Shown here in pieces: positions 52,274-62,156 of a DNA stretch of 64,000 nucleotides (position 1 is the stretch's first letter; every line of letters starts with the position of its first letter). This stretch comes from Candidatus Nomurabacteria bacterium GW2011_GWE1_32_28 (GTDB lineage: Bacteria > Patescibacteriota > Minisyncoccia > Phycocordibacterales > UBA9973): assembly GCA_000989515.1 (NCBI GenBank), contig LBOM01000003.1, positions 111,833-175,832 of the forward strand, given 5' to 3'. Under the pieces are notes generated by a model, which worked only from the letters and a program-made list of their open reading frames with translations, was not told where the DNA came from and did not search any database. Made by a program: the position numbers and the translations under genes.

Positions 52274-52378
52274 ATATAAATTAAATTTACATAAACCCTG
52301 ATAATTTTTTTATATATTTTAGAATTTTTTTTGAATATAACAATATTACTAATTTTAAAATATGCTATTATTTATAAT

Positions 52379-53338
52379 ATGAAAATTGGGATTTTTGATT
52401 CGGGGTTAGGAGGATTAATTATTGCGAAGGCAATAAGAAAAGTGATGCCAGAATATGACTATGTATATTTGGGAGACACAAAAAGAGTGCCTTATGGTAA
52501 TAGGTCGCATGAAGCTATTTATGAATTTACTCGTGAGGCGGTAGATTATTTATTTAAAAAAGAAGATTGCGCGATTATTATTATTGCTTGCAACACTGCA
52601 TCTGCAAGAGCACTAAGAAGAATTCAACAAGAATATTTAGTTGAATACAATGCGACACGTAGATTGATGGGGGATTATGAAAGAAAAATATTAGGTGTAC
52701 TTATTCCAGCTGCAGAAGAAGCTGCAAGATATAAGAGAGTAGGAATATTAGGAACTTTGGGAACAGTAAATTCAAATTCTTTTCCTAATGAAATTCAAAA
52801 AATAAATTTAGAAAAGAAAAAAAAATTAGAAAAAAATAATTATTTGTCCTTTTTTCAGCATACGCAACATTGTATTAGTAAACCATATTCAGGTTCGAGT
52901 GCGGGCTGTGAAAAAGGAGCAAATACTTATTTTTTAGATGAGATTGAAAATGATACAAAAGTATTTCAAAATTCTGCACCATTGCTCGTGCCTTTAATAG
53001 AAGAAGGGGAGAAAGTTTTAGCAGTACAATTTATTAAAAAATATTTGAAAACACTTCAAGTTAAAAAACTTGATGCATTAGTTCTCGGCTGTACACATTA
53101 TCCTTTTTATAAAAAAGAGATTAAAAAGATACTTGGTTCTAAAATTAAAGTAATCTCTCAAGATGAAATTGTTCCTAAAAAATTGAAAGATTATTTTGTT
53201 AACTATCCTGAAATTGAGAAAAAACTTTCTAAAAATAAAAAAGCAAAAATATTAGTGACAGATATAACTCCTAATATAAAAAAGTTATCTCAAAAATGGT
53301 TTGGGAAAAATACAGAATTGGAATTAATTGAATTTTAA
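52379..53338 (+). CDS. murI: Glutamate racemase, with a ~45-aa internal insertion
   Basis: MKIGIFDSGLGGLIIAK...ACNTASA...GCTHYP. The start is taken at the ATG right after TTTATAAT. The insertion SKPYSGSSAGCEKGAN is encoded by GC-rich element family E at 52883-52916. Confidence 0.85.
   Translation: MKIGIFDSGLGGLIIAKAIRKVMPEYDYVYLGDTKRVPYGNRSHEAIYEFTREAVDYLFKKEDCAIIIIACNTASARALRRIQQEYLVEYNATRRLMGDYERKILGVLIPAAEEAARYKRVGILGTLGTVNSNSFPNEIQKINLEKKKKLEKNNYLSFFQHTQHCISKPYSGSSAGCEKGANTYFLDEIENDTKVFQNSAPLLVPLIEEGEKVLAVQFIKKYLKTLQVKKLDALVLGCTHYPFYKKEIKKILGSKIKVISQDEIVPKKLKDYFVNYPEIEKKLSKNKKAKILVTDITPNIKKLSQKWFGKNTELELIEF
52883..52916. repeat. Family-E GC-rich element, in-frame in murI
   Basis: ccatattcaggttcgagtgcgggctgtgaaaaag matches the reverse complement of 55121-55155 (the intergenic hairpin arm) at 30/34 positions. 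Confidence 0.65.
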
Positions 53339-54123
53339 ATCTCTATCCAAATAGGGCAGTGGTCTGAGCCATGATAATCGGAAAGTATTCCTGTTTTTTT
53401 TATTCCTGTTTTTTTATTAAGAAAGTATTTGTCTGCAAAAAAGTAGTCTAGACGCCAGCCAACATTTCTGTCTCTTGCTCGAGTTTTTTGATCCCAGTAA
53501 GTATAAGAATCTTTTTTCTCTGGATAAAAATATCTAAAAACATCTATAAAATTATTTTTTATTACTTTACTAATCCATGCACGTTCTATGGGCAAGAATC
53601 CAGTATTCTCTTCATTTGCTTTTGGACGTGCGAGGTCTATCGCTTCGTGTGCTGTGTTTATATCTCCACAAAAAATAACGTGCTCGCCATTTTTGCGAAG
53701 TTTTAAAATAAATTTTAAGAAAGCATCATAAAATTCTAATTTGTATTTTAATCTATGTGGACCACTTCCACCGTTTGGAAAATACCCAGTGATGATTGTT
53801 GTTTTTTTATTTTTGTTTTCATATTTGGCAATTAATAATCTGCCTTCATCGTCGAATTTTTTTATTCCCATTCCATATAAAACTTCCTTTGGTTTTTCTT
53901 TTGAATAAATTCCCACACCACTATATCCTTTTCTTAATTTAGAATATGCAAAGTAAGAATGATATGGAGGAATGTTTCTCACATCTTCGTGTAACTGGTC
54001 TGGTTCTACTTTTGTTTCTTGTAAGCATAAAATATCTACTTTCCCTTTATCAAATAAGGGTATAAGAAAGCCTTGTTTTGCCGTTGCCCTTAATCCATTT
54101 GTGTTCCACGAAACTATTTTCAT
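53335..54123 (-). CDS. xth: Exodeoxyribonuclease III
   Basis: MKIVSWNTNGLRA...DILCLQETK...GDINTAH...SDHCP are the ExoIII/APE1 catalytic motifs. Confidence 0.9.
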   Translation of the reverse strand: MKIVSWNTNGLRATAKQGFLIPLFDKGKVDILCLQETKVEPDQLHEDVRNIPPYHSYFAYSKLRKGYSGVGIYSKEKPKEVLYGMGIKKFDDEGRLLIAKYENKNKKTTIITGYFPNGGSGPHRLKYKLEFYDAFLKFILKLRKNGEHVIFCGDINTAHEAIDLARPKANEENTGFLPIERAWISKVIKNNFIDVFRYFYPEKKDSYTYWDQKTRARDRNVGWRLDYFFADKYFLNKKTGIKKTGILSDYHGSDHCPIWIEI

Positions 54124-54124
54124 A

Positions 54125-55042
54125 TTATTTTTTAGAATGAAACTTTCTGTGAACTTCTTGCAATTGTTTGTCGGTCACGTGTGTGTAGATTTGTGTCGTT
54201 GCTATATTAGAATGTCCCAACATTATTTGCACACTTCTTATGTCTGCACCATTTTGTAAAAGATCAGTAGCAAAACAATGTCTTATAATATGAGGAGTAA
54301 CTTTTTTTGAGATACCAGCTTTTATAGCATAATGTTTTACTATCCTCTCTATCGATCTTCTTGCTAGTCCTTCTTTTTCATTTATACTTTTTTCTTTTGA
54401 TACTTTTACAAACAGAGCATCATCCATATCTTTTCTATTTTTTAAATATTCATTTATACATTTATTTGCTTCTTCTGAAACAAAAACTACTCTGACCTTG
54501 CTTCCTTTTCCTCGTATTGAAAATTCCCCAGCAGAGAAAGCCATATCTCTGGTGAGTGAACATAATTCAGAGACACGAAGACCAGTAGAAAAAAGTAATT
54601 GTAGTATCGCTCTGTCACGAAGTGATTTGATATCGTTTCCTTCTGGCGCAGAGAGTAGACGTTCGAGTTCTGTATGGGTTATCAAGTCAAGTTGTCTCTC
54701 AGGTACTTTTGCTAATTCTATTCTTTCAGCAGGAAGGGACTCTATCTTTTTCTTTGCTAAATATTTGAGAAATCCTCGTATACCTATCAGATAATAATTT
54801 TGAGTTTTCTTTTTTAATGTTTCACCATTTTGTCTGTTATTCCCGGCGCATTGTCTGTTTAGAAAAAGTCTAAATTCTCTCACGTTTTCATCGGTTATAT
54901 CTTTTACATCTTTTACTTTTATAAATTCTAAAAAACGAGTTATGTATCTGTCGTAATTTTCTACAGTTTTTAAACTTGAGCCTTTTTCAATTTCTAAATA
55001 TTCTAAAAATTCTCTTTTTAATTTATACACATCAGAGATCAT
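54125..55042 (-). CDS. xerD: Tyrosine site-specific recombinase XerC/XerD family
   Basis: C-terminal catalytic region PHIIRHCFATDLLQNGADIRSVQIMLGHSNIATTQIYTH (R..H..R...Y) and an N-terminal core-binding domain. Confidence 0.85.
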   Translation of the reverse strand: MISDVYKLKREFLEYLEIEKGSSLKTVENYDRYITRFLEFIKVKDVKDITDENVREFRLFLNRQCAGNNRQNGETLKKKTQNYYLIGIRGFLKYLAKKKIESLPAERIELAKVPERQLDLITHTELERLLSAPEGNDIKSLRDRAILQLLFSTGLRVSELCSLTRDMAFSAGEFSIRGKGSKVRVVFVSEEANKCINEYLKNRKDMDDALFVKVSKEKSINEKEGLARRSIERIVKHYAIKAGISKKVTPHIIRHCFATDLLQNGADIRSVQIMLGHSNIATTQIYTHVTDKQLQEVHRKFHSKK

Positions 55043-55109
55043 TTATTGATTATATCATGCCTGCCTGCCTTCTAGTGGGTTGCACAATATTTAAAGAATT
55101 TATTAAAAA

Positions 55110-55201
55110 TTGCAAGGTAGTATTTTTCACGGCCCGCACTCGAACTTGAACATGGTTTATCATCTTTATGAAGCGTATGCCGAAAAAACACTACCTTGCA
55201 A
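55110..55201. repeat. ~92-nt hairpin element (19-bp terminal inverted repeats) in the xerD-rpsO divergent intergenic region, containing family-E sequence
   Basis: TTGCAAGGTAGTATTTTTC ... GAAAAAACACTACCTTGCAA. The internal cacggcccgcactcgaacttgaacatgg is shared with the murI insertion. Confidence 0.6.
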
Positions 55202-55230
55202 TTTCTTCAGCTTTATGCTAAGATAATCCA

Positions 55231-55494
55231 ATGTTAACTACAAAGAAAAAGCAGTTAGTTATAAAGAAAAATCAAGTTCACGAAAAAGACACAGGATCTT
55301 CTGTTGTTCAAGTTGCTATATTGTCTACTCAAATAGACGAACTAGCAAAGCATTTAAAGAAGCACAAAAAAGATAATAATTCTCGTCGTGGTCTTATCAA
55401 AATGGTAGCAGATAGACGAATTCATTTAAAATATTTAGAACGAAAAAATAAACCTCAATACAATGCAGTTGTTAAAAAAATGAAACTTGCTTAA
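55231..55494 (+). CDS. rpsO: 30S ribosomal protein S15
   Basis: 87 aa. ...GSSVVQVAILSTQIDELAKHLKKHKKDNNSRRGLIKMVADRRIHLKYL is the S15 signature. Confidence 0.9.
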   Translation: MLTTKKKQLVIKKNQVHEKDTGSSVVQVAILSTQIDELAKHLKKHKKDNNSRRGLIKMVADRRIHLKYLERKNKPQYNAVVKKMKLA

Positions 55495-55500
55495 TTGATC

Positions 55501-55532
55501 GAGCCCCCTGTCGGGGGCTTTTGTTTCTTTTG
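55501..55532 (+). terminator. rpsO terminator / attenuator hairpin
   Basis: GAGCCCCC-TGTC-GGGGGCTT followed by TTGTTTCTTTT. Confidence 0.7.
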
Positions 55533-55573
55533 CAAGATAGAGTTGAGACAGACTTCTGTGTTATAATAAATAT

Positions 55574-56083
55574 ATGACAGTTATAAAAAATAAAGAACAG
55601 AGAGTGGGTGTTTTTATTGATACTCAAAATTTATATCATTCAGCTCGCAACTTGTATAAGGCGAGAGTAAATTTTGGTGCTGTTTTGAAAGAAGCAGTAG
55701 CTGGCAGAAAGCTTGTTCGTGCGGTAGCTTATGTTATCACTTCTGAGGCAGGAGATGAAAAGAATTTTTTTGAAGCACTTGAAAAGTTGGGAATTGAAAC
55801 TAAGACAAAAGACTTACAGGTGTATTATGGTGGTTTTAAAAAAGGTGATTGGGACGTCGGTCTTGCTGTCGATGCTATTAAATTTGCACCGAAGCTCGAT
55901 GCTGTCGTATTAGTCGCTGGTGATGGGGATTATGTGCCTATGGTAGAATATATTCAGAGTATGGGAGTACAAGTAGAGGCAATTTCATTTGGTAAATCAA
56001 CTTCTGGTAAGCTTCGTGAAGCAGTTGATGATTTTATAGATCTTTCTTTGAATCCAAAGAAATATTTAATAGGAATGAGGTAG
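55574..56083 (+). CDS. NYN-domain (LabA-like / DUF88) protein inserted between rpsO and pnp
   Basis: 169 aa. GVFIDTQNLYHS...GDWDVGLAVDAI...VLVAGDGDYVPMVEYIQSMGVQVEAI is the NYN/LabA PIN-like pattern. Confidence 0.7.
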   Translation: MTVIKNKEQRVGVFIDTQNLYHSARNLYKARVNFGAVLKEAVAGRKLVRAVAYVITSEAGDEKNFFEALEKLGIETKTKDLQVYYGGFKKGDWDVGLAVDAIKFAPKLDAVVLVAGDGDYVPMVEYIQSMGVQVEAISFGKSTSGKLREAVDDFIDLSLNPKKYLIGMR

Positions 56084-56199
56084 TAATTATAAATTAATCG
56101 GTTCGCGTTTAGACAGAAAGTAGTGTTCTCAATATTGAGGAACAATACTGTAGTCTCAACACGAACCAAAACCTTGAATTTTTTTGAGGTAAAAATAAT

Positions 56200-58344
56200 A
56201 TGCAAAAAAAAGAGTATTCGGTAGAGATAGGTGGTAAGATATTAACCGCTATTTTCTCAAATTTAGCAGAACAAGCACATGGTTCAGTAATTTTAAAATA
56301 TGGTGAGACTATTGTGCTCGCTACGGCTTGTATGTCTAAAGACAGACAAGATGGTTTAGGGTTTTTTAATTTAACAGTAGATTATTTAGAAAAATATTAT
56401 GCTGTTGGAAAAATTTTAGGTTCTAGGTTTATGCACAGAGAAGGTAAACCATCAGAGGATGCAGTGCTCGCTTGTCGAGTAATAGACAGGACACTACGTC
56501 CACTTTTTGATCAGTCCATGCGTCATGCAGTGCAGATAATAGTTTCTGTCCTATCCTTAGACCAGGAAGATCCTACTATTTTGGCTGTGAATGCAGCTTC
56601 TCTTGCTCTTGCTGTCTCTGATATTCCTTGGGCAGGTCCTGTAGGAGCTGTACGTATTGGTAAATATGATAGTGATATTTTAACAGTGAGTCCCGCACAG
56701 AGTCTGAGAGAAGATGATTCTAAATATAAATTTGATCTTACTATTTGTGGAAAGGGTGGCAATATAAACATGATTGAAGCTGCTTCTCATCAGGTAAGAG
56801 AAGAAGAATTAGAAGAAGCATTTAAAAAAGCAAGTGAAGAAATAACAAAATTAGAAGATTTTCAAAAAAAGATAGTTGCAGAAATAGGTATCCCTAAAAG
56901 AGTAATAGAAAAAGAAAAGATAAGTGAAGAATCTATAAAATTATTTAATGAAAATATTTTGCCTAAAATGGAAGGAGCTTTGTTTTATGGTGTTGGTAAA
57001 AAGAAAATAGACGAATTACATAGTATTTGGAATAAAATGGTAAAGGATAATTATCCAGATAGGAAAGATTTTTCTCCTGAAGATGATCTTTTTGATAATA
57101 CAGAAAACGAAATGTTGCATAAAAAAGCTATTGATGAAGATAAGCGTGCTGATGGTAGAAAAATGGATGAACTTCGTGATCTATATGCTCAAGCTGGAGG
57201 ACTTTCTTCTATATTGCATGGTAGTGGGATTTTTTATCGTGGTGGAACACATGTACTTTCTGTTCTTACTCTTGGTGGTCCAGAGGATAAACTTTTGATA
57301 GATGGAATGGAAGCAAAAGAAGAAAAAAGATTTATGCATCATTATAATTTTCCTCCTTACTCAGGTGGTGAAGTCGGACGTACCGGTAATACTAATCGTA
57401 GAGAAGTAGGACATGGTGCTCTTGCTGAAAAAGCCTTGGCGATGGTACTGCCCTCTGTGGAAGAATTTCCTTATACTATGCGTTTAGTTTCTGAATCTAT
57501 GGCTTCCAATGGTTCTACCTCTCAAGCTTCTATTTGTGCTTCTGTTCTTGCACTTATGGATGGTGGAGTACCAATAAAAGCACCAGTTGGTGGTATTGCT
57601 ATGGGACTTATGATGGAATCAATTACGAATGAGCAATTACGAATTACGAAAGAACCTAGATACAAAATACTTACAGACATACAAGGACCAGAAGACCATC
57701 ATGGTGATATGGATTTTAAAGTTGCTGGTACAAGAGAAGGAGTGACAGCTATTCAACTTGATGTAAAAGTGGAAGGAGTACCAATAAAAATATTAGCTGA
57801 AGCTATGATTCAAGCTAAAATTGCAAGACTTGCTATTATAGATAGAATTGAAAAAGAAATTCCAAAAGCTAGAACTGAAATTTCTAAAAATGCCCCAAAG
57901 ATTTTAATTATAAAAATTAAGCCAGACCAAATAGGTATGGTTATAGGTGGAGGTGGAAAAACTATTAAAGATATAAAAGAAAGAACTGGTGCTGAAATAA
58001 CTATTGAAGATGATGGAACGGTATATCTAACAGGAAAAGATGATAAGGCAGAAATGGCAAAGAAAATAATTGAAGAAATGACACATGAATTTAATATTGG
58101 AGAAATTCTAAAAGGTGAAGTTGTAAGAATTGCAGATTTTGGAGCTTTCGTGAGACTTAATCCTTTTACTGATGGTATGGTTCATATTTCTGAAATGGCA
58201 CCATTTCGCGTAGAAAGAGTTAGTGATATTATAAAGGAAGGTATGATAGTGCCTGTGAAGATTTTGAAAGTTGATAGAGAGCAAGGCAAAATAAGTTTGT
58301 CTATCAAAGAAGCAGATAAAGATTTCTTCGCACCTAAAAAGTAA
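56200..58344 (+). CDS. pnp: Polynucleotide phosphorylase
   Basis: 714 aa. Two RNase PH domains, KH (IGMVIGGGGKTIK) and S1 (GEVVRIADFGAFVRL). It carries an in-frame heptad repeat at 57619-57650 encoding ESITNEQLRITKE. Confidence 0.95.
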   Translation: MQKKEYSVEIGGKILTAIFSNLAEQAHGSVILKYGETIVLATACMSKDRQDGLGFFNLTVDYLEKYYAVGKILGSRFMHREGKPSEDAVLACRVIDRTLRPLFDQSMRHAVQIIVSVLSLDQEDPTILAVNAASLALAVSDIPWAGPVGAVRIGKYDSDILTVSPAQSLREDDSKYKFDLTICGKGGNINMIEAASHQVREEELEEAFKKASEEITKLEDFQKKIVAEIGIPKRVIEKEKISEESIKLFNENILPKMEGALFYGVGKKKIDELHSIWNKMVKDNYPDRKDFSPEDDLFDNTENEMLHKKAIDEDKRADGRKMDELRDLYAQAGGLSSILHGSGIFYRGGTHVLSVLTLGGPEDKLLIDGMEAKEEKRFMHHYNFPPYSGGEVGRTGNTNRREVGHGALAEKALAMVLPSVEEFPYTMRLVSESMASNGSTSQASICASVLALMDGGVPIKAPVGGIAMGLMMESITNEQLRITKEPRYKILTDIQGPEDHHGDMDFKVAGTREGVTAIQLDVKVEGVPIKILAEAMIQAKIARLAIIDRIEKEIPKARTEISKNAPKILIIKIKPDQIGMVIGGGGKTIKDIKERTGAEITIEDDGTVYLTGKDDKAEMAKKIIEEMTHEFNIGEILKGEVVRIADFGAFVRLNPFTDGMVHISEMAPFRVERVSDIIKEGMIVPVKILKVDREQGKISLSIKEADKDFFAPKK
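57619..57650 (+). repeat. Heptad repeat (AATTACG orientation), in-frame in pnp
   Basis: tcaattacgaatgagcaattacgaattacgaa. Confidence 0.8.
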
Positions 58345-58387: not shown

Positions 58388-59305
58388 TTGGGTTTTTTGA
58401 GTAAATTTTCTATAAATGTTAAAATAAACAAAATGGAAAGTGATAACAAATTAAAAAATAAAAATGTAGAAACTTTTGCTGGAGATATGGTGAAAGCTAT
58501 AGAAAGCGATAGGGGTGGATTAATTAAAAAAATAATTCAGGAAGAAGAAAAAAAAGAAGCTCAAAAGAAAAATTTATCTCCAAAATCAGCTCAGAATAAA
58601 ACTTTCTTGATTGTAGGTTTTTTACTTTTAATAATAACCTTTTTAATTTTGATATTTTTGTTTGTTTTTAATAAAAATGTTGGTACAGCATTAATCCCAT
58701 TACAACATACTTCAGTTATTTTTACTGATCAAACAATTTTTAAGGAGATTGATAGTTTGTCAAAAGACAAGATAGCGAATGTCGTTCTGAATGAAAAAAA
58801 TAATACTAAAACAAAGATTGGAGGTATTGAAAGTATTTATCTTACAGAAAATAAAAAAGTTATAGATTTTAGTAGATTTATCTTGCTTATAAAAGGTAGT
58901 TTAAATTCTGACCAACTTCGTCTTTTTTATGATAATTTTTTGCTTGGTATATTTAAAAGTGGTTTAAACTCTTCTTCTCCTGATGCAGGAGATTTATTTA
59001 TTTTATTAAAGGTCAAATCTTTTACTGATATATTTCCCATAATGCAGGTCTGGGAAAATAAAATGTTGTATGATTTCTATGAGTTTTTTGAAATAAAAAT
59101 TTCTCCAGAAACTAATTATTTGTTTACCAAAGATTGGGAAGAAGATATTGTTAGTAATAAAAATGCACGAATTCTTAGAGATAATACTGGAAAAATTATT
59201 TTGATGTATGTATATGCTGATGATAATTCTATTATTGTAACTGATTCAGAAAATGCAATAAACGAAGTAGTTTTAAGGCTTAATTCTAGTAAGATAAAGA
59301 AATAA
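58388..59305 (+). CDS. Hypothetical single-TM membrane protein
   Basis: 305 aa with TM FLIVGFLLLIITFLILIFLFVF. The start may be the internal Met at 58433. Confidence 0.45.
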   Translation: MGFLSKFSINVKINKMESDNKLKNKNVETFAGDMVKAIESDRGGLIKKIIQEEEKKEAQKKNLSPKSAQNKTFLIVGFLLLIITFLILIFLFVFNKNVGTALIPLQHTSVIFTDQTIFKEIDSLSKDKIANVVLNEKNNTKTKIGGIESIYLTENKKVIDFSRFILLIKGSLNSDQLRLFYDNFLLGIFKSGLNSSSPDAGDLFILLKVKSFTDIFPIMQVWENKMLYDFYEFFEIKISPETNYLFTKDWEEDIVSNKNARILRDNTGKIILMYVYADDNSIIVTDSENAINEVVLRLNSSKIKK

Positions 59306-59375: not shown

Positions 59376-62156
59376 GTGGAGTTTGTGTGGTATTATTTAT
59401 TTATGGATAAAGAGCTTGTAAAACAGAATGTTCAAAAACTTGTAGAAAAATATGAAATTGTAAAGAGAGATGGAAAATTAAGAACTTATTCCGAAGAGGA
59501 TACGATTCAAGGATTTGTTTTACCTCTTCTTGAAATACTTGGTTGGAATATTAGAGATAAAAACGAAGTTTCTTCTCAAGATCATATAAAAGGTTCTGGT
59601 AGACCTGATCACACACTTAAAATAAATGGAATAACTCAATTTTACTTAGAATCAAAAAAACTCAGTGTTGATTTAGATGACGAAATATTTTCAAAACAAG
59701 TAATAAATTATTCTTGGAATACTGGTGTAACCTATGCTATTTTAACTGATTTTGAAAGTATTAAGGTTTTTAATGCACAAAGAATAGATAAGACTGATTT
59801 AATGGACAAACTTGTTTTTGAACTTTCTTATAATAAATACGTTTCAGATTTTGAAATTTTATGGCTTCTATCAAAAGAATCTTTTCAAAAGAAAACTTTA
59901 GATGAATATGCTGAAAAAATTGGGAAAAAAGAAAAATCTGTGCAAGTTTCCACTGTTATAAAAAAAATTAATGAGGATATTCAAGATTGTAGAGAATGGC
60001 TCACTAACGAATTTAAAACTTGGAATGAAAAGCTAAATCTTTCAAAAGATATGATTGATGAAGGAGTACAAAAACTCTTAGATAGGTTAATTTTTCTTCG
60101 TGTTGCCGAAGATAGAGAGGTAGAACCAAATATTTTAAAAAATTTATTGAGAGAAGCTGAAAAAAGTAAAAGTTATAAGCCATTTCAGGCGATGTCTATA
60201 ATTTTTAGAGAGTTAGATAAAATTTATAACTCTAATCTTTTTTCACCTCATCCTTTCGAAAGTTGGGAAATAGTAGATGACAAAGGATTTGAAAAAATGA
60301 TAGAAAAACTTTATGGCAAGAAAGGTCAATATGAATATAATTTTAAAGAAATGCCCGCTGATGTACTAGGGACTGTTTATGAAAATTATTTAAATTATAA
60401 ACTTACTCAATCAAAAAAAGGTGTAAATGTTGAAAAAGATGTTAAAAAAAGAAAAGAGCAGGGAATTTTTTATACTCCCACTTTTGTGGTGGATTATATT
60501 GTTAGAAATGCGTTAAAACCAGTTTTAGATAATTGCAAAAGTGTGGCTGACCTGAAAAAGATAAAGGTATTAGATCCTGCTTGTGGTTCTGGGTCTTTTC
60601 TTATTAGAGCACTTGAAGCTATCACAGAAAAGTATAAAGAATTTGGAATTGATGGATCTGTAAAAAGACAAATAATTTTAGAAAATCTTTTTGGTGTTGA
60701 TTTAGATATGCAAGCAGTAGAGATTGCTCGTCTTAATTTACTTATCAATTCTCTTGATTTAAAAGAAATTTTACCAAAATTAAATAATAATATAAAAAAT
60801 GGAAATTCTCTAATTTCTGGAACTGATGAAGAAATGGAAAAACAATTTGGCAAAAATTGGAAAGATAAAAAACCATTCAATTGGCAAGAAGAATTTCCTG
60901 ATGTGTTCAAACAGGGTGGTTTTGATGTAATTATCGGTAATCCTCCTTATGTTAGGCAAGAAGAAATAAAAGAAGACAAAGAAATATTTTCACAACTTTT
61001 TCCAAATGTGGCGAATGGTACCGCTGATTTGTATGTTTATTTTTTTGAAAGAGCGATACAACTATTAAAAAATAGTGGATATCTAGGTTTTATCATTTCA
61101 AATAAATTTATAAAAGCTGGATATGGGAAGAATTTAAGGAAATATTTAAAAGAAAGTTTGAGTATTAAACAACTAATTGATCAATTTAATAAAAAGGTTT
61201 TTGAAGATGCAGTTGTTGATCCTTGTACGATTATAATTAAGAAAGAAAAACCACTAAAAAATAGCCATATTTTATACAATTATGAAACAAATATTCTACA
61301 AGCTAATCTTAATGAAAGTGGATGGACTTTTGCAAATGAAGAATCTTTAGATTTAAAAAGTAAAATTGAAGAAAAAGGTAAAAAAATAAAAGATTGGGAG
61401 GGGGTCAATATAAGAAGAGGAATTGTTACAGGATTAAATGAAGCTTTTATATTAAATTTAGACAACAAAGAGAGGTTTATTGAAGAAGATAAAAATTGTG
61501 ATGTTTTAATAAAACCTTTATTAGCTGGAAGAAACATAAAAAGGTATCTTGCTGGTTTTGATAATAAATTTTTGTTAAAAATTATTCAAGGGAGCAATAT
61601 TGATGATTGTGAACCTATAAAAAATCACTTATTAAAGTTTAAAGATGAATTGTCTGAACGATGGGAACCAAAAAATGGAAAAATAAAATGGTTTGAGTTA
61701 AGGTCATGTGTTTACTATGAAGAATTTGAAAAACCAAAAATAATTTATCCTGATATATCTGATACTGGTGGTTTTTATTGGGACGATGAAGGATATTTTT
61801 TAAATAATACTATATATATGATTACTGGTAATATTAAAAAATCATGGGTTGGTTTATTAAATTCTAGATTAATTAGTTGGTATTATAAAAAGATAGCTTC
61901 TGGCCTTGGTGAAGGAGGAGTGAGATATTTCACTCAATTTGTTAAAGAATTACCAATTCCAGAAAATACTGAATCATTAGATAATTTGACTCAAAAAATG
62001 CTTGATTTAAATAAAGAATTAAAAAAAATATTAGAAAACTCAAATGAATGGGAAAATATAAAATCTGAAATTGAAAAAACTGATAAAAAGATTAATGAAG
62101 AAGTTTATGGTCTTTATGGATTAAATGAAAAAGAAATAAAAATTATAGAGAAATAA
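59376..62156 (+). CDS. Type IIG/IIL restriction-modification fusion enzyme (MmeI-like: N-terminal PD-(D/E)xK nuclease, gamma-class N6-adenine methyltransferase, C-terminal target-recognition domain)
   Basis: 926 aa. N-terminal ...GRPDHTL...FYLESKKL (D...ExK). MTase motif I VLDPACGSGSFL and motif IV IIGNPPYV. Size and architecture match single-chain MmeI-family enzymes. Confidence 0.7.
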   Translation: MEFVWYYLFMDKELVKQNVQKLVEKYEIVKRDGKLRTYSEEDTIQGFVLPLLEILGWNIRDKNEVSSQDHIKGSGRPDHTLKINGITQFYLESKKLSVDLDDEIFSKQVINYSWNTGVTYAILTDFESIKVFNAQRIDKTDLMDKLVFELSYNKYVSDFEILWLLSKESFQKKTLDEYAEKIGKKEKSVQVSTVIKKINEDIQDCREWLTNEFKTWNEKLNLSKDMIDEGVQKLLDRLIFLRVAEDREVEPNILKNLLREAEKSKSYKPFQAMSIIFRELDKIYNSNLFSPHPFESWEIVDDKGFEKMIEKLYGKKGQYEYNFKEMPADVLGTVYENYLNYKLTQSKKGVNVEKDVKKRKEQGIFYTPTFVVDYIVRNALKPVLDNCKSVADLKKIKVLDPACGSGSFLIRALEAITEKYKEFGIDGSVKRQIILENLFGVDLDMQAVEIARLNLLINSLDLKEILPKLNNNIKNGNSLISGTDEEMEKQFGKNWKDKKPFNWQEEFPDVFKQGGFDVIIGNPPYVRQEEIKEDKEIFSQLFPNVANGTADLYVYFFERAIQLLKNSGYLGFIISNKFIKAGYGKNLRKYLKESLSIKQLIDQFNKKVFEDAVVDPCTIIIKKEKPLKNSHILYNYETNILQANLNESGWTFANEESLDLKSKIEEKGKKIKDWEGVNIRRGIVTGLNEAFILNLDNKERFIEEDKNCDVLIKPLLAGRNIKRYLAGFDNKFLLKIIQGSNIDDCEPIKNHLLKFKDELSERWEPKNGKIKWFELRSCVYYEEFEKPKIIYPDISDTGGFYWDDEGYFLNNTIYMITGNIKKSWVGLLNSRLISWYYKKIASGLGEGGVRYFTQFVKELPIPENTESLDNLTQKMLDLNKELKKILENSNEWENIKSEIEKTDKKINEEVYGLYGLNEKEIKIIEK

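Follow-up and report, generated by a model that had tools for sequence, protein, structure and literature searches.

A conserved NYN-domain protein encoded between rpsO and pnp, a candidate housekeeping endoribonuclease of Paceibacteria

In Escherichia coli, rpsO and pnp reportedly form an operon with an RNase III-processed pnp leader. In the window analysed here (the whole 64-kb stretch of DNA from a Candidatus Nomurabacteria genome, 30.9% GC), a gene for a NYN-domain protein lies between these two genes. This raises the question of why a predicted nuclease is encoded at this place, and on which RNA it might act. The initial annotation considered the gene to be inserted in the rpsO-pnp operon, within the autoregulatory leader of pnp.

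Gene order and its conservation

The rpsO gene (55231-55494, + strand) encodes ribosomal protein S15 (87 aa; PF00312, Ribosomal_S15, 6.7e-28; TIGR00952, 96.7 bits, cutoff 63.65). It is followed on the same strand by the gene for a single-domain NYN/LabA protein of 169 aa (55574-56083; COG1432, PF01936) and by pnp (56200-58344), which encodes a polynucleotide phosphorylase of 714 aa with two RNase PH domains, a KH domain and an S1 domain (NF008805, 773.6 bits; Pfam domains). The last gene of the conserved cluster (58388-59305, + strand) encodes a membrane-anchored protein of 305 aa without known family, for which we found no Pfam or PADLOC match. Two conserved neighbours identified by Pfam diverge from rpsO on the - strand, a xerC/D-like recombinase gene (54125-55042) and an exonuclease III-like xth (53335-54123), giving the order xth<-xer<-|rpsO->NYN->pnp->membrane protein. 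Open reading frames and family profiles agree with the initial annotation on the coordinates of rpsO, the NYN gene and pnp. As in E. coli, rpsO lies upstream of pnp on one strand and is followed by a terminator. Unlike in E. coli, pnp does not come immediately after it: at this locus the NYN gene comes after the rpsO terminator and before the leader of pnp, and about 55 of 80 related genomes likewise have NYN between rpsO and pnp.

More than 8000 homologues of the NYN protein were found in the database, the best 120 of them at 82-99% identity. S15 precedes NYN in 79 of 80 Paceibacteria species genomes and pnp is found downstream of NYN within 4 kb in about 55, the S15-NYN linkage thus being the more constant of the two. 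The order rpsO-NYN-pnp also occurs on 37 metagenome contigs. Full-length matches place Xer on the opposite strand, upstream, in 63 loci; Xth is found there in 45, and the membrane protein is 3' of pnp in about 40. A weak relative of the membrane protein (19-27% identity) follows NYN without pnp in at least seven loci, directly or past extra sequence. The gene is not a local insertion; the arrangement is ancient and common to a class of ultra-small CPR bacteria.

NYN is next to rpsO without pnp nearby in about 20 loci. The genes that separate NYN from pnp in relatives are a heterogeneous set (RelB in three loci; FolD, an ABC transporter, trigger factor, an SDR and a peptidase S51 in one each), among which we found no conserved third partner. 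Given that unrelated genes are tolerated between NYN and pnp and that pnp is non-adjacent in about a quarter of the genomes, tight co-transcription is not required. Among divergent homologues, the L084/85 loci (51% identity) have xer|S15-NYN-PNP with a 4-nt overlap of the S15 and NYN genes, L081 (59%) has S15-NYN only, and in L090 (54%) NYN overlaps pnp by 13 nt and rpsO is absent. Gaps between the S15 and NYN genes are 0-12 nt in L030, L042 and L049. Several homologues of 45-60% identity are found in unrelated contexts (thioredoxin, SOD, shikimate dehydrogenase).

Identity to the relatives is higher for NYN than for PNPase in 53 of 53 loci, S15 in 68 of 79, Xer in 63 of 63 and Xth in 45 of 45. 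These identities indicate that NYN is under stronger purifying selection than all four of these neighbours.

Fold and predicted active site of the NYN protein

The NYN protein (18.7 kDa, pI 8.6) matches PF01936 at 3.6e-35 (122 bits, cutoff 24.2) over profile positions 1-144 of 145, the sole Pfam family at E <= 0.001. NYN_YacP/Rae1 (PF05991) gave no match, and TIGR00288, the NYN hypothetical equivalog, reached 26.4 bits against a cutoff of 178.45, in a match limited to residues 89-157. An AF2 model based on 43 sequences reaching down to 37% identity has a pLDDT of 93.5; an earlier model from a shallow alignment of sequences 83-99% identical was discarded (pLDDT 51.7). The model and Foldseek agree on a PIN-like fold, alpha/beta/alpha in layout, whose sheet is parallel and which has no helical insert after strand 2.

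The same Pfam family includes VPA0982 of Vibrio parahaemolyticus (PDB 2QIP; NYN.COG1432/LabA-like), which has the same single-domain size (165 aa). It is matched at E = 4.8e-24 by sequence, 4.2e-45 by profile and 1.5e-15 by Foldseek (TM 0.86/0.89), and the two proteins share 30-38% identity and the motifs DxQN, GDWDVG..DA and SGDGDF. The CPR proteins differ in that they make up a distinct orthologous group, which is very tightly conserved and linked to rpsO and pnp. Cyanobacterial LabA/LalA (Synechococcus elongatus) carries the same COG1432/PF01936 label (PMC5499597), a likeness of label alone: all that is known of LabA comes from genetics, namely its negative feedback on KaiC expression, and we found no common context.

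The MARF1 NYN domain (PDB 5YAA, 6FDL) has the same fold (TM 0.61-0.73), although identity to the CPR protein is only 13-15%. MARF1 is a proven Mg2+/Mn2+-dependent ssRNA endo/exonuclease in which D178, N181, D215, D246 and D272 are each needed for ssRNA cleavage (PMC6217404). The conserved residues of the NYN protein are D16, N19, E58, D94, D100, D117 and D119; across the 43 sequences, D16, N19 and D119 never vary, and conservation is 90% or higher at D94, D100 and D117. In the model, D16 and N19 are associated with strand 10-16, E58 follows strand 46-56, D94 is in helix 94-107, and D117 and D119 follow strand 110-114. Four acidic residues, at the ends of strands 1, 2 and 4 and the start of helix 3, and an Asn after strand 1 are thus present at the MARF1 catalytic positions, a correspondence of secondary-structure position and not of residue-level superposition. 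The protein is predicted to be a metal-dependent endoribonuclease. Both the call of a 169-aa NYN/LabA-like PIN-fold protein and the conservation and nuclease-family membership on which the initial annotation had staked it are upheld, with PF01936 matched at full length and the active site intact. The window protein has an Ala where most relatives carry a conserved Ser preceding GDGD, and many homologues end in basic tails rich in Lys, Ala and Pro, as proteins that bind nucleic acids typically do.

MARF1 further differs in being a eukaryotic multidomain protein with RRM and LOTUS domains needed for substrate binding, and its NYN domain requires the LOTUS RNA-binding domains for activity (PMC6217404). 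The CPR protein is a bare catalytic domain and so probably depends on a partner for substrate binding; the KH/S1 domains of PNPase or the ribosome are candidates.

Transcription signals and the pnp leader hairpin

Upstream of rpsO we identified a promoter (55196-55224, + strand) comprising TTGCAA (55196-55201), a 17-nt spacer and the extended -10 box TGCTAAGAT (55216-55224), which ends 6 nt upstream of the ATG. Of 80 loci, 75 have a TGnTAnnnT box ending 4-9 nt before the rpsO ATG, where chance would give about 0.8%, and only three have a Shine-Dalgarno (SD)-like motif. The NYN gene also has an extended -10 box, TGTTATAAT (55559-55567, + strand), 6 nt before its ATG and without a Shine-Dalgarno. 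A box in that position occurs in 22 of 79 loci, all within the clade of the window, compared with one of 55 for pnp, and an SD-like motif is upstream of NYN in one of 81. Given boxes so close to the start codons and the absence of an SD, rpsO and NYN are probably translated from leaderless mRNAs, as judged from promoter geometry. The position of the rpsO box leaves no space for a 5' UTR, here as in the 75 loci, so the S15 pseudoknot autoregulation of E. coli could not operate; the structured, S15-bound rpsO 5' UTR of that species has no counterpart at this locus.

After rpsO, the terminator scan and centroid fold identify an intrinsic-terminator-like hairpin (GAGCCCCC-TGTC-GGGGGCTT) with a T-rich tract (55501-55531, + strand). 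Its GC-rich 8-bp stem (55501-55520) is followed by TTTGTTTCTTTT and scored as terminator-like, in agreement with the hairpin annotated at 55501-55532, which corresponds to the stem and T tract. Many relatives have GC-rich hairpins downstream of rpsO. In most relatives, a promoter-like element (TTGCaT...TGCTAATAT) is present between NYN and a long hairpin preceding pnp, as in E. coli, where the preceding gene and the hairpin likewise have a separate promoter between them. A sigma-70 scan of the window found no + strand promoter from the NYN 3' end to this hairpin, which begins 16 nt past the NYN stop in the sub-clade of the window. From this spacing and the lack of an intervening promoter we infer that, unlike in most relatives, NYN and pnp are co-transcribed in the window and the hairpin is intercistronic in this sub-clade.

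The long imperfect hairpin of the pnp 5' leader (56100-56167, + strand) spans 68 nt, with 24 bp in two helices and a conserved internal loop. It folds at -27.6 kcal/mol (z = -6.0; none of 200 shuffles folds as well), confirming the structure annotated at 56101-56170. In the alignment, 93.6% of cells are paired and 12 of the 24 pairs show compensatory change, a result equalled by none of 500 shuffles (slid controls, 32-42%). A covariance model scores 87.6 bits on the + strand and 38.8 on the - strand. It finds exactly one copy per locus, always preceding pnp, and no other copy in the 64-kb window, which rules out the hairpin as a NYN 3' element or a repeated NYN target. All 37 metagenome matches are upstream of pnp where the contig permits, and the hairpin remains with pnp in loci where NYN is separated (L005, L006, L017, L019, L023, L028, L030, L032, L062, L099 and L126). 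More distant Paceibacteria keep NYN and have pnp leaders unrelated to this hairpin. The long hairpin is a covarying, single-copy structured RNA attached to pnp and not to NYN. Like the NYN gene, it stands far above chance expectation. The long stem expected before pnp was thus found, but it belongs to pnp alone. It stays with pnp past intervening genes, NYN can have its own -10 box, rpsO ends in a terminator and most relatives have a promoter-like element before the hairpin, all of which argues against placing the NYN gene within the pnp autoregulatory leader.

The single-stranded 5' flank of the hairpin (56092-56099, + strand; consensus TTAGTTAATC, window AATTAATC; alignment A2) is also conserved, T6, A7 and A8 being invariant and T9 at least 90% conserved. 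The fold places a small second hairpin at 56171-56190 (+ strand); GAGG (56186-56189), the Shine-Dalgarno of pnp, lies in its 3' arm, 10 nt upstream of the start codon. About 22 of 38 related loci have a comparable G-rich 3' arm 8-14 nt before the pnp ATG. Rfam searches, which covered the entire window with gathering thresholds and 55050-56260 with E <= 10, returned only tRNAs and chance miRNA-like hairpin matches; they detected no S15 leader and no known pnp leader, and the long hairpin matched no family. RNase III is the enzyme that cuts the analogous E. coli pnp hairpin. The two leaders have in common a long imperfect hairpin just before the SD, here conserved as an RNA structure, whereas the hairpin sequences are unrelated and the small second hairpin is additional here. 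The long hairpin may work like the E. coli leader, as an element for RNase III-type processing and for stability, and the small hairpin may mask the pnp SD.

Possible roles of the NYN protein

Our best explanation, to which we attach an even chance, is that rpsO, NYN, pnp and the membrane protein gene constitute an ancient conserved RNA-metabolism cluster of the Paceibacteria (CPR/Patescibacteria), and that NYN serves as a housekeeping endoribonuclease in concert with PNPase, the 30S subunit or both. The enzyme would be Mg2+-dependent and would make internal cuts, so that PNPase would be supplied with 3' ends during the decay and processing of RNA; given the S15 linkage, it may also act on the 30S subunit or 16S rRNA. 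The separate linkage of S15 and of pnp to NYN in divergent lineages speaks for this explanation. Against it, the function is drawn from homology and gene neighbourhood, and the protein has no LOTUS domains of the kind that MARF1 needs. The Ala before GDGD, the genomes with non-adjacent pnp, the unrelated contexts of several homologues and the lack, as of 2017, of a proven nuclease among bacterial COG1432 members (PMC5499597) also weigh against it.

YacP/Rae1 of Bacillus is a ribosome-associated endoribonuclease. Like the CPR protein, it is a small bacterial NYN-clan nuclease encoded amid translation-related genes, and it offers a functional model for a ribosome-linked NYN enzyme, although it belongs to another Pfam family (PF05991) and has a GYN motif. 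NYN could be a 30S-subunit or 16S rRNA maturation nuclease, analogous to the PIN-domain Nob1 or to YbeY, that is linked to rpsO because it acts during the platform assembly nucleated by S15, adjacency to pnp being merely inherited from an ancestral rpsO-pnp pair. The near-constant S15-NYN linkage, the coupling or overlap of the two genes in L030, L042, L049 and L084, the extreme conservation of NYN and the basic tails of its homologues would fit such a role. CPR bacteria keep rnc, rnj and pnp, but some half of the known factors for ribosome biogenesis are missing from them, many canonical ones included (PMC12641178), and previous analyses of gene neighbourhood had connected bacterial NYN genes with the processing of tRNA and rRNA (PMC5499597). 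However, L090 has NYN-pnp without rpsO, and the NYN gene usually carries a promoter of its own and is set apart from rpsO by a terminator. We consider this reading doubtful, though a real possibility; it is compatible with our best explanation and does not exclude it.

A role as processing nuclease of the rpsO-pnp transcript, cutting the pnp leader at the hairpin or at its conserved single-stranded flank and internal loop, and thereby serving PNPase autoregulation in place of or alongside RNase III, seems unlikely. NYN is directly upstream of the hairpin, is probably co-transcribed with pnp in the sub-clade of the window and overlaps pnp in L090. The strongly conserved unpaired nucleotides of the flank and loop suggest sequence-specific protein recognition, and ssRNA is preferred by NYN enzymes such as MARF1 (PMC6217404). 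On the other hand, RNase III reportedly suffices for the pnp leader role in E. coli, and CPR bacteria generally have kept the enzyme (rnc is reported as retained in at least 90% of CPR genomes; PMC12641178). Its presence is taken from the literature, as a regular-expression search of the six-frame translation of the 64-kb window found no RNase III signature. The hairpin stays with pnp and not with NYN at the 11 loci where they are separated, NYN adjoins rpsO without pnp nearby in about 20 loci, and distant Paceibacteria keep NYN despite unrelated pnp leaders. Furthermore, one would not expect a nuclease with a single target to exceed S15 and PNPase in conservation.

Slightly less probable again is a non-catalytic RNA-binding or regulatory protein that has kept the fold, a possibility left for cyanobacterial LabA, a clock-output regulator characterised only by genetics. 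As of a 2017 survey of the PIN superfamily, nuclease activity had been shown for no bacterial COG1432 member (PMC5499597), and the NYN protein has no accessory RNA-binding domain. Nevertheless, acidic active-site positions and an Asn that are invariant or nearly so down to 37% identity are hard to explain without catalysis or metal binding. Finally, a defence or toxin nuclease, or mobile-element cargo, was suggested by a match to PADLOC PDLC01154 ('LabA-like NYN nuclease', 7.1e-16), the phage-integrase-family gene just upstream and toxin-antitoxin genes inserted nearby in relatives, but is effectively refuted by single-copy, fixed synteny across a bacterial class and conservation above that of a ribosomal protein, the match covering only the NYN half of the profile (positions 149-295 of 310), the recombinase being a XerC/D-like housekeeping gene in the same place in 63 loci, and the surroundings being conserved housekeeping genes with no partner immunity gene and no defence island.

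Returning to a housekeeping endoribonuclease, we tentatively propose, as a possibility well short of even, that NYN is essential in Paceibacteria and forms with PNPase a two-enzyme decay and processing module, in which an endonucleolytic cut would be followed by 3'-5' phosphorolysis. The module may be docked on the 30S subunit via S15 and would compensate for the small RNase and ribosome-biogenesis repertoire of CPR bacteria.

Our survey of the literature on NYN proteins with rpsO, S15, PNPase, Patescibacteria/CPR and COG1432/DUF88/LabA-like proteins found no description of this arrangement. Its class-wide placement, its conservation above both neighbours and the lack of previous study make NYN a good candidate for an unrecognised housekeeping ribonuclease. 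Two by-products of the analysis are a new covarying pnp-leader RNA motif, absent from Rfam, and strong sequence evidence for leaderless rpsO, and often NYN, mRNAs in these organisms, which for rpsO would exclude classical S15 5'-UTR autoregulation. The CPR/Patescibacteria account for much of the diversity of bacteria and have a small RNase set, and NYN is a concrete and easily expressed candidate for their missing core RNase. If the proposed role is true, the large bacterial COG1432/LabA family would gain its first assigned function.

The NYN gene and its neighborhood across the Paceibacteria

The cluster opens with rpsO (55231-55494), which encodes a bacterial S15 (Pfam 6.7e-28; TIGR00952, 96.7 bits, cutoff 63.65), and continues with the 169-aa NYN gene (55574-56083) and pnp (56200-58344), a canonical PNPase (NF008805, 773.6 bits). 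All three open reading frames lie exactly where the initial annotation had placed them, and its assignment of the middle one to the NYN family is borne out by HMM search, with an end-to-end Pfam match (PF01936, 122 bits, cutoff 24.2, profile positions 1-144 of 145). The fourth conserved member of the cluster encodes a 305-aa protein (58388-59305) that has a single membrane helix, at its N terminus, and matches no Pfam or PADLOC family. This membrane protein is found 3' of pnp in ~40 loci, and in at least seven loci a weak relative follows NYN without pnp, either directly or past extra sequence. The window has a GC content of 30.9%. Directly 3' of the cluster (59376-62156) is a 926-aa Eco57I/MmeI-like type IIG restriction-modification fusion (PF07669, N6_Mtase, TaqI_C). 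A glutamate-racemase-like protein of 335 aa (52331-53338) matches Asp_Glu_race within residues 31-163 only, and appears to carry an insertion in its middle.

We scanned one genome per GTDB species and recovered 80 loci from Nomura-, Taylor-, Vogel-, Yonath-, Adlerbacteria and other Paceibacteria, in which neighbors were called by tblastn using the window proteins as queries. S15 lies directly 5' of NYN in 79 of the 80 loci, and on the opposite strand its upstream neighbors, the recombinase Xer and the exonuclease III-like Xth, are conserved as well. PNPase is encoded within 4 kb 3' of NYN in ~55 loci and is not found within this distance in ~20. The gap between NYN and pnp varies between 18 nt and over 3 kb and is occupied by heterogeneous genes (RelB antitoxins, FolD, an ABC transporter, trigger factor and others), and this junction appears to be a permissive insertion site. 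Three lineages (L017:4567-4836, L028:4559-4840 and L074:4628-4897) have RelB/DinJ-type antitoxin genes inserted there, upstream of the pnp leader. NYN had been described as inserted into the operon; since the S15/Xer/Xth/PNPase neighborhood recurs across the Paceibacteria, it is not a local insertion. A large CPR clade has inherited the arrangement xth<-xer<-|rpsO->NYN->pnp->membrane protein from its ancestor.

The NYN protein matches more than 8000 database proteins, the best 120 at 82-99% identity, and the nearest (96-99%) are labeled Candidatus Nomurabacteria or Paceibacterota. Among full-length matches, identity to the window protein averages 77.8% (minimum 66.9%) and exceeds that of PNPase in 53 of 53 loci, S15 in 68 of 79, Xer in 63 of 63 and Xth in 45 of 45. 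Since neither the main exoribonuclease nor a ribosomal protein is as well conserved, NYN is very likely a core housekeeping factor.

More distant representatives (41-60% identity) were also looked up. P0204 (51% identity) retains the order xer|S15-NYN-PNP with S15 and NYN overlapping by 4 nt (L084/85), P0145 (59%) follows S15 and precedes an acetyltransferase (L081), and P0187 (54%) lies between an HD-domain gene and pnp, which it overlaps by 13 nt, without rpsO (L090). Other distant homologues adjoin thioredoxin, SOD, Lit/TIM, shikimate dehydrogenase or the FtsZ region. The S15 and PNPase linkages each survive on their own, which argues for a functional tie of NYN to each of the two proteins, beyond inherited position. 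In two distant lineages (L082/L083 and L091, 52% identity), NYN overlaps a downstream thioredoxin gene rather than pnp. Many of the more distant homologues, and not the window protein, carry basic low-complexity C-terminal tails of 80-250 aa rich in Lys, Ala and Pro (at 51-66% identity, P0124, P0127, P0135, P0147 and P0157).

Fold and predicted active site of the NYN protein

The sole solved relative detected by sequence is VPA0982 (PDB 2QIP; E = 4.8e-24, profile 4.2e-45). An AlphaFold model built from a 43-sequence alignment (pLDDT 93.5) superposes on 2QIP with a TM-score of 0.86-0.89 and on the NYN domain of MARF1 with 0.61-0.73. MARF1 is a proven Mg2+/Mn2+-dependent ssRNA nuclease. Four aspartates are essential for its activity, three of them closing strands 1, 2 and 4 and the fourth opening helix 3, and strand 1 is followed by a conserved Asn (PMC6217404). 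The residues of the window protein at these secondary-structure positions are D16/N19, E58, D94 and D117/D119. Across homologues down to 37% identity, D16, N19 and D119 never vary, and conservation of D94, D100 and D117 is at least 90%. Family match, modeled fold and active-site residues thus agree in placing the protein in NYN/COG1432, and nuclease activity is predicted. In a 2017 survey of the PIN superfamily, the NYN.COG1432 group is of unknown function and no member has been characterized as a nuclease (PMC5499597). The window protein is a bare catalytic domain (18.7 kDa, pI 8.6); because MARF1 needs its LOTUS domains for substrate binding, a partner supplying RNA binding is plausible by analogy.

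Promoters and the pnp leader hairpin

Upstream of rpsO (window 55196-55233), TTGCAA is followed by a 17-nt spacer and TGCTAAGAT, which ends 6 nt before the ATG. A promoter of this form (TTGCAA-N17-TGCTAAnAT), its extended -10 ending 4-9 nt before the rpsO ATG, occurs in 75 of the 80 Paceibacteria loci, vs ~0.8% expected by chance, and an SD-like motif in only three of 80. Because the -10 box sits next to the ATG and SD-like motifs are rare, the rpsO mRNA is very probably leaderless. In other bacteria, S15 autoregulates via 5'-UTR structures; a leaderless S15 mRNA, as implied here, would leave no room for this classical regulation and thus rule it out. The region 5' of rpsO also contains a long inverted repeat (AAATTGCAAGGTAGTATTTTTC ... 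GAAAAAACACTACCTTGCAATTT, 55107-55206, fold z = -3.95), whose 3' arm holds the rpsO -35 box. The repeat gave miRNA-like chance matches in Rfam; none of the other loci showed it.

The hairpins reported on both sides of NYN are present by terminator scan and folding. The first, 3' of rpsO, consists of a GC-rich stem of 8 bp (55501-55520) with a T-rich tract behind it and scores as terminator-like. Beyond it, TGTTATAAT (55559-55567) ends 6 nt before the NYN ATG. An extended -10 at this position occurs in 22 of 79 loci, all from the clade of the window, vs one of 55 for pnp; an SD-like motif precedes NYN in one of 81. In a second lineage group the NYN -10 box is ~50 nt upstream and is followed by an AU-rich leader starting with conserved GGTCGA...TTTTAATA. 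Given these -10 boxes, NYN would be driven by its own promoter, with the terminator insulating rpsO from NYN. The (A)GGTCGA..TTTTAATA motif has 21 matches in 675 kb, 14 of them 35-70 nt before a NYN ATG (L005, L008, L015, L018, L026, L038, L039, L044, L050, L071, L072 and L074). Located at the predicted 5' end of the NYN leader in lineages without the leaderless-type promoter, it may enhance translation or act as an autoregulatory site.

The second hairpin, the long stem sought upstream of pnp, is a 68-nt imperfect structure (56100-56167; -27.6 kcal/mol, z = -6.0, 0 of 200 shuffles as good). A small hairpin follows (56171-56190), and the pnp Shine-Dalgarno GAGG lies in its 3' arm; many loci (19 of 57) have a 5' leader and SD before pnp. 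Alignment of 35 leaders gives a 24-bp two-helix hairpin with 93.6% of cells paired, vs at most 32-42% in slid controls. Compensatory changes occur in 12 of the 24 pairs (0 of 500 column shuffles matched any observed measure) and, by RNAalifold, in 11 of 17. With a covariance model, the + strand reaches 58-92 bits vs 21-40 on the - strand, with exactly one copy per locus; the model matches three loci outside the seed (L015, L021 and L062) and no further copy in the 64-kb window. The hairpin has no Rfam family.

Where genes intervene between NYN and pnp, the hairpin is immediately 5' of pnp and not after NYN (L005, L006, L017, L019, L023, L028, L030, L032 and L062). An exact-pattern scan with its 5' half recovered 37 more metagenome contigs, and every one extending far enough has pnp ~80-200 nt downstream on the same strand. 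On one of these contigs (L099) 1.9 kb separates NYN from the hairpin, and on another (L126) the 1.7 kb upstream contain no NYN. The hairpin is an element of pnp and not of NYN. NYN does lie between rpsO and pnp, as the initial annotation had it, but is not part of the pnp leader, since the hairpin stays with pnp when NYN is separated.

In most relatives, NYN and the hairpin are separated by a segment with a promoter-like TTGCaT...TGCTAATAT. This segment is missing from the window and from L001, L002, L004 and L014, where the hairpin starts 16 nt past the NYN stop, so that in these closest genomes NYN and pnp are probably co-transcribed. In ~22 of 38 loci the second, small hairpin is present as well, its G-rich 3' arm lying 8-14 nt before the ATG; nine of the 38 have just an AU-rich spacer of ~10 nt instead. 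Different long hairpins precede pnp in more distant Paceibacteria. Two close relatives (L003 and L035), with NYN-pnp gaps of 18 and 56 nt, lack the leader hairpin, which is therefore dispensable in some genomes. In E. coli, RNase III cuts a long hairpin in the pnp leader, resulting in PNPase autoregulation; the architecture here is parallel, and RNase III cutting is putative. At least 90% of CPR genomes are reported to have kept rnc, rnj and pnp (PMC12641178).

A small element recurs in several intergenic regions of the relatives (L004:4626 and 8205, L014:6836, L027:4631, L028:3439 and L116:101); its hairpin tip, GCGCCCTCGGAGnCAnAAnGnCAGGGGACCCAC, is conserved and the long stems flanking it are variable. 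One copy is inside a pnp leader and one upstream of an rpsO. The element, which may be MITE-like or a small RNA, has no Rfam family, and no copy of it turned up in the window.

Predicted role of NYN

The best supported role is that of a housekeeping endoribonuclease, which would act with PNPase in RNA decay or processing and/or with the 30S subunit. The initial annotation suggested from the position of NYN that it acts on the autoregulatory pnp leader. This is possible but disfavored: the hairpin tracks pnp, NYN persists without a nearby pnp, RNase III is available, and the extreme conservation of NYN suggests many substrates. A purely regulatory, non-catalytic NYN is disfavored by the invariant active site. 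A defense or toxin function is excluded by the stable synteny; the PADLOC match covers just the NYN half of a longer profile.

Our literature search found nothing linking NYN, LabA or COG1432 to rpsO, pnp or CPR bacteria. Within a known, functionally uncharacterized family, NYN represents an orthologous group that is new and tightly conserved. The cluster is a novel version of the classical rpsO-pnp operon, and the hairpin of the pnp leader, though new as an RNA motif, has a known analogue. None of this amounts to a system of a new kind. The predicted housekeeping endoribonuclease makes a clear and testable candidate for a core RNase missing in the CPR, a major and poorly understood bacterial radiation.
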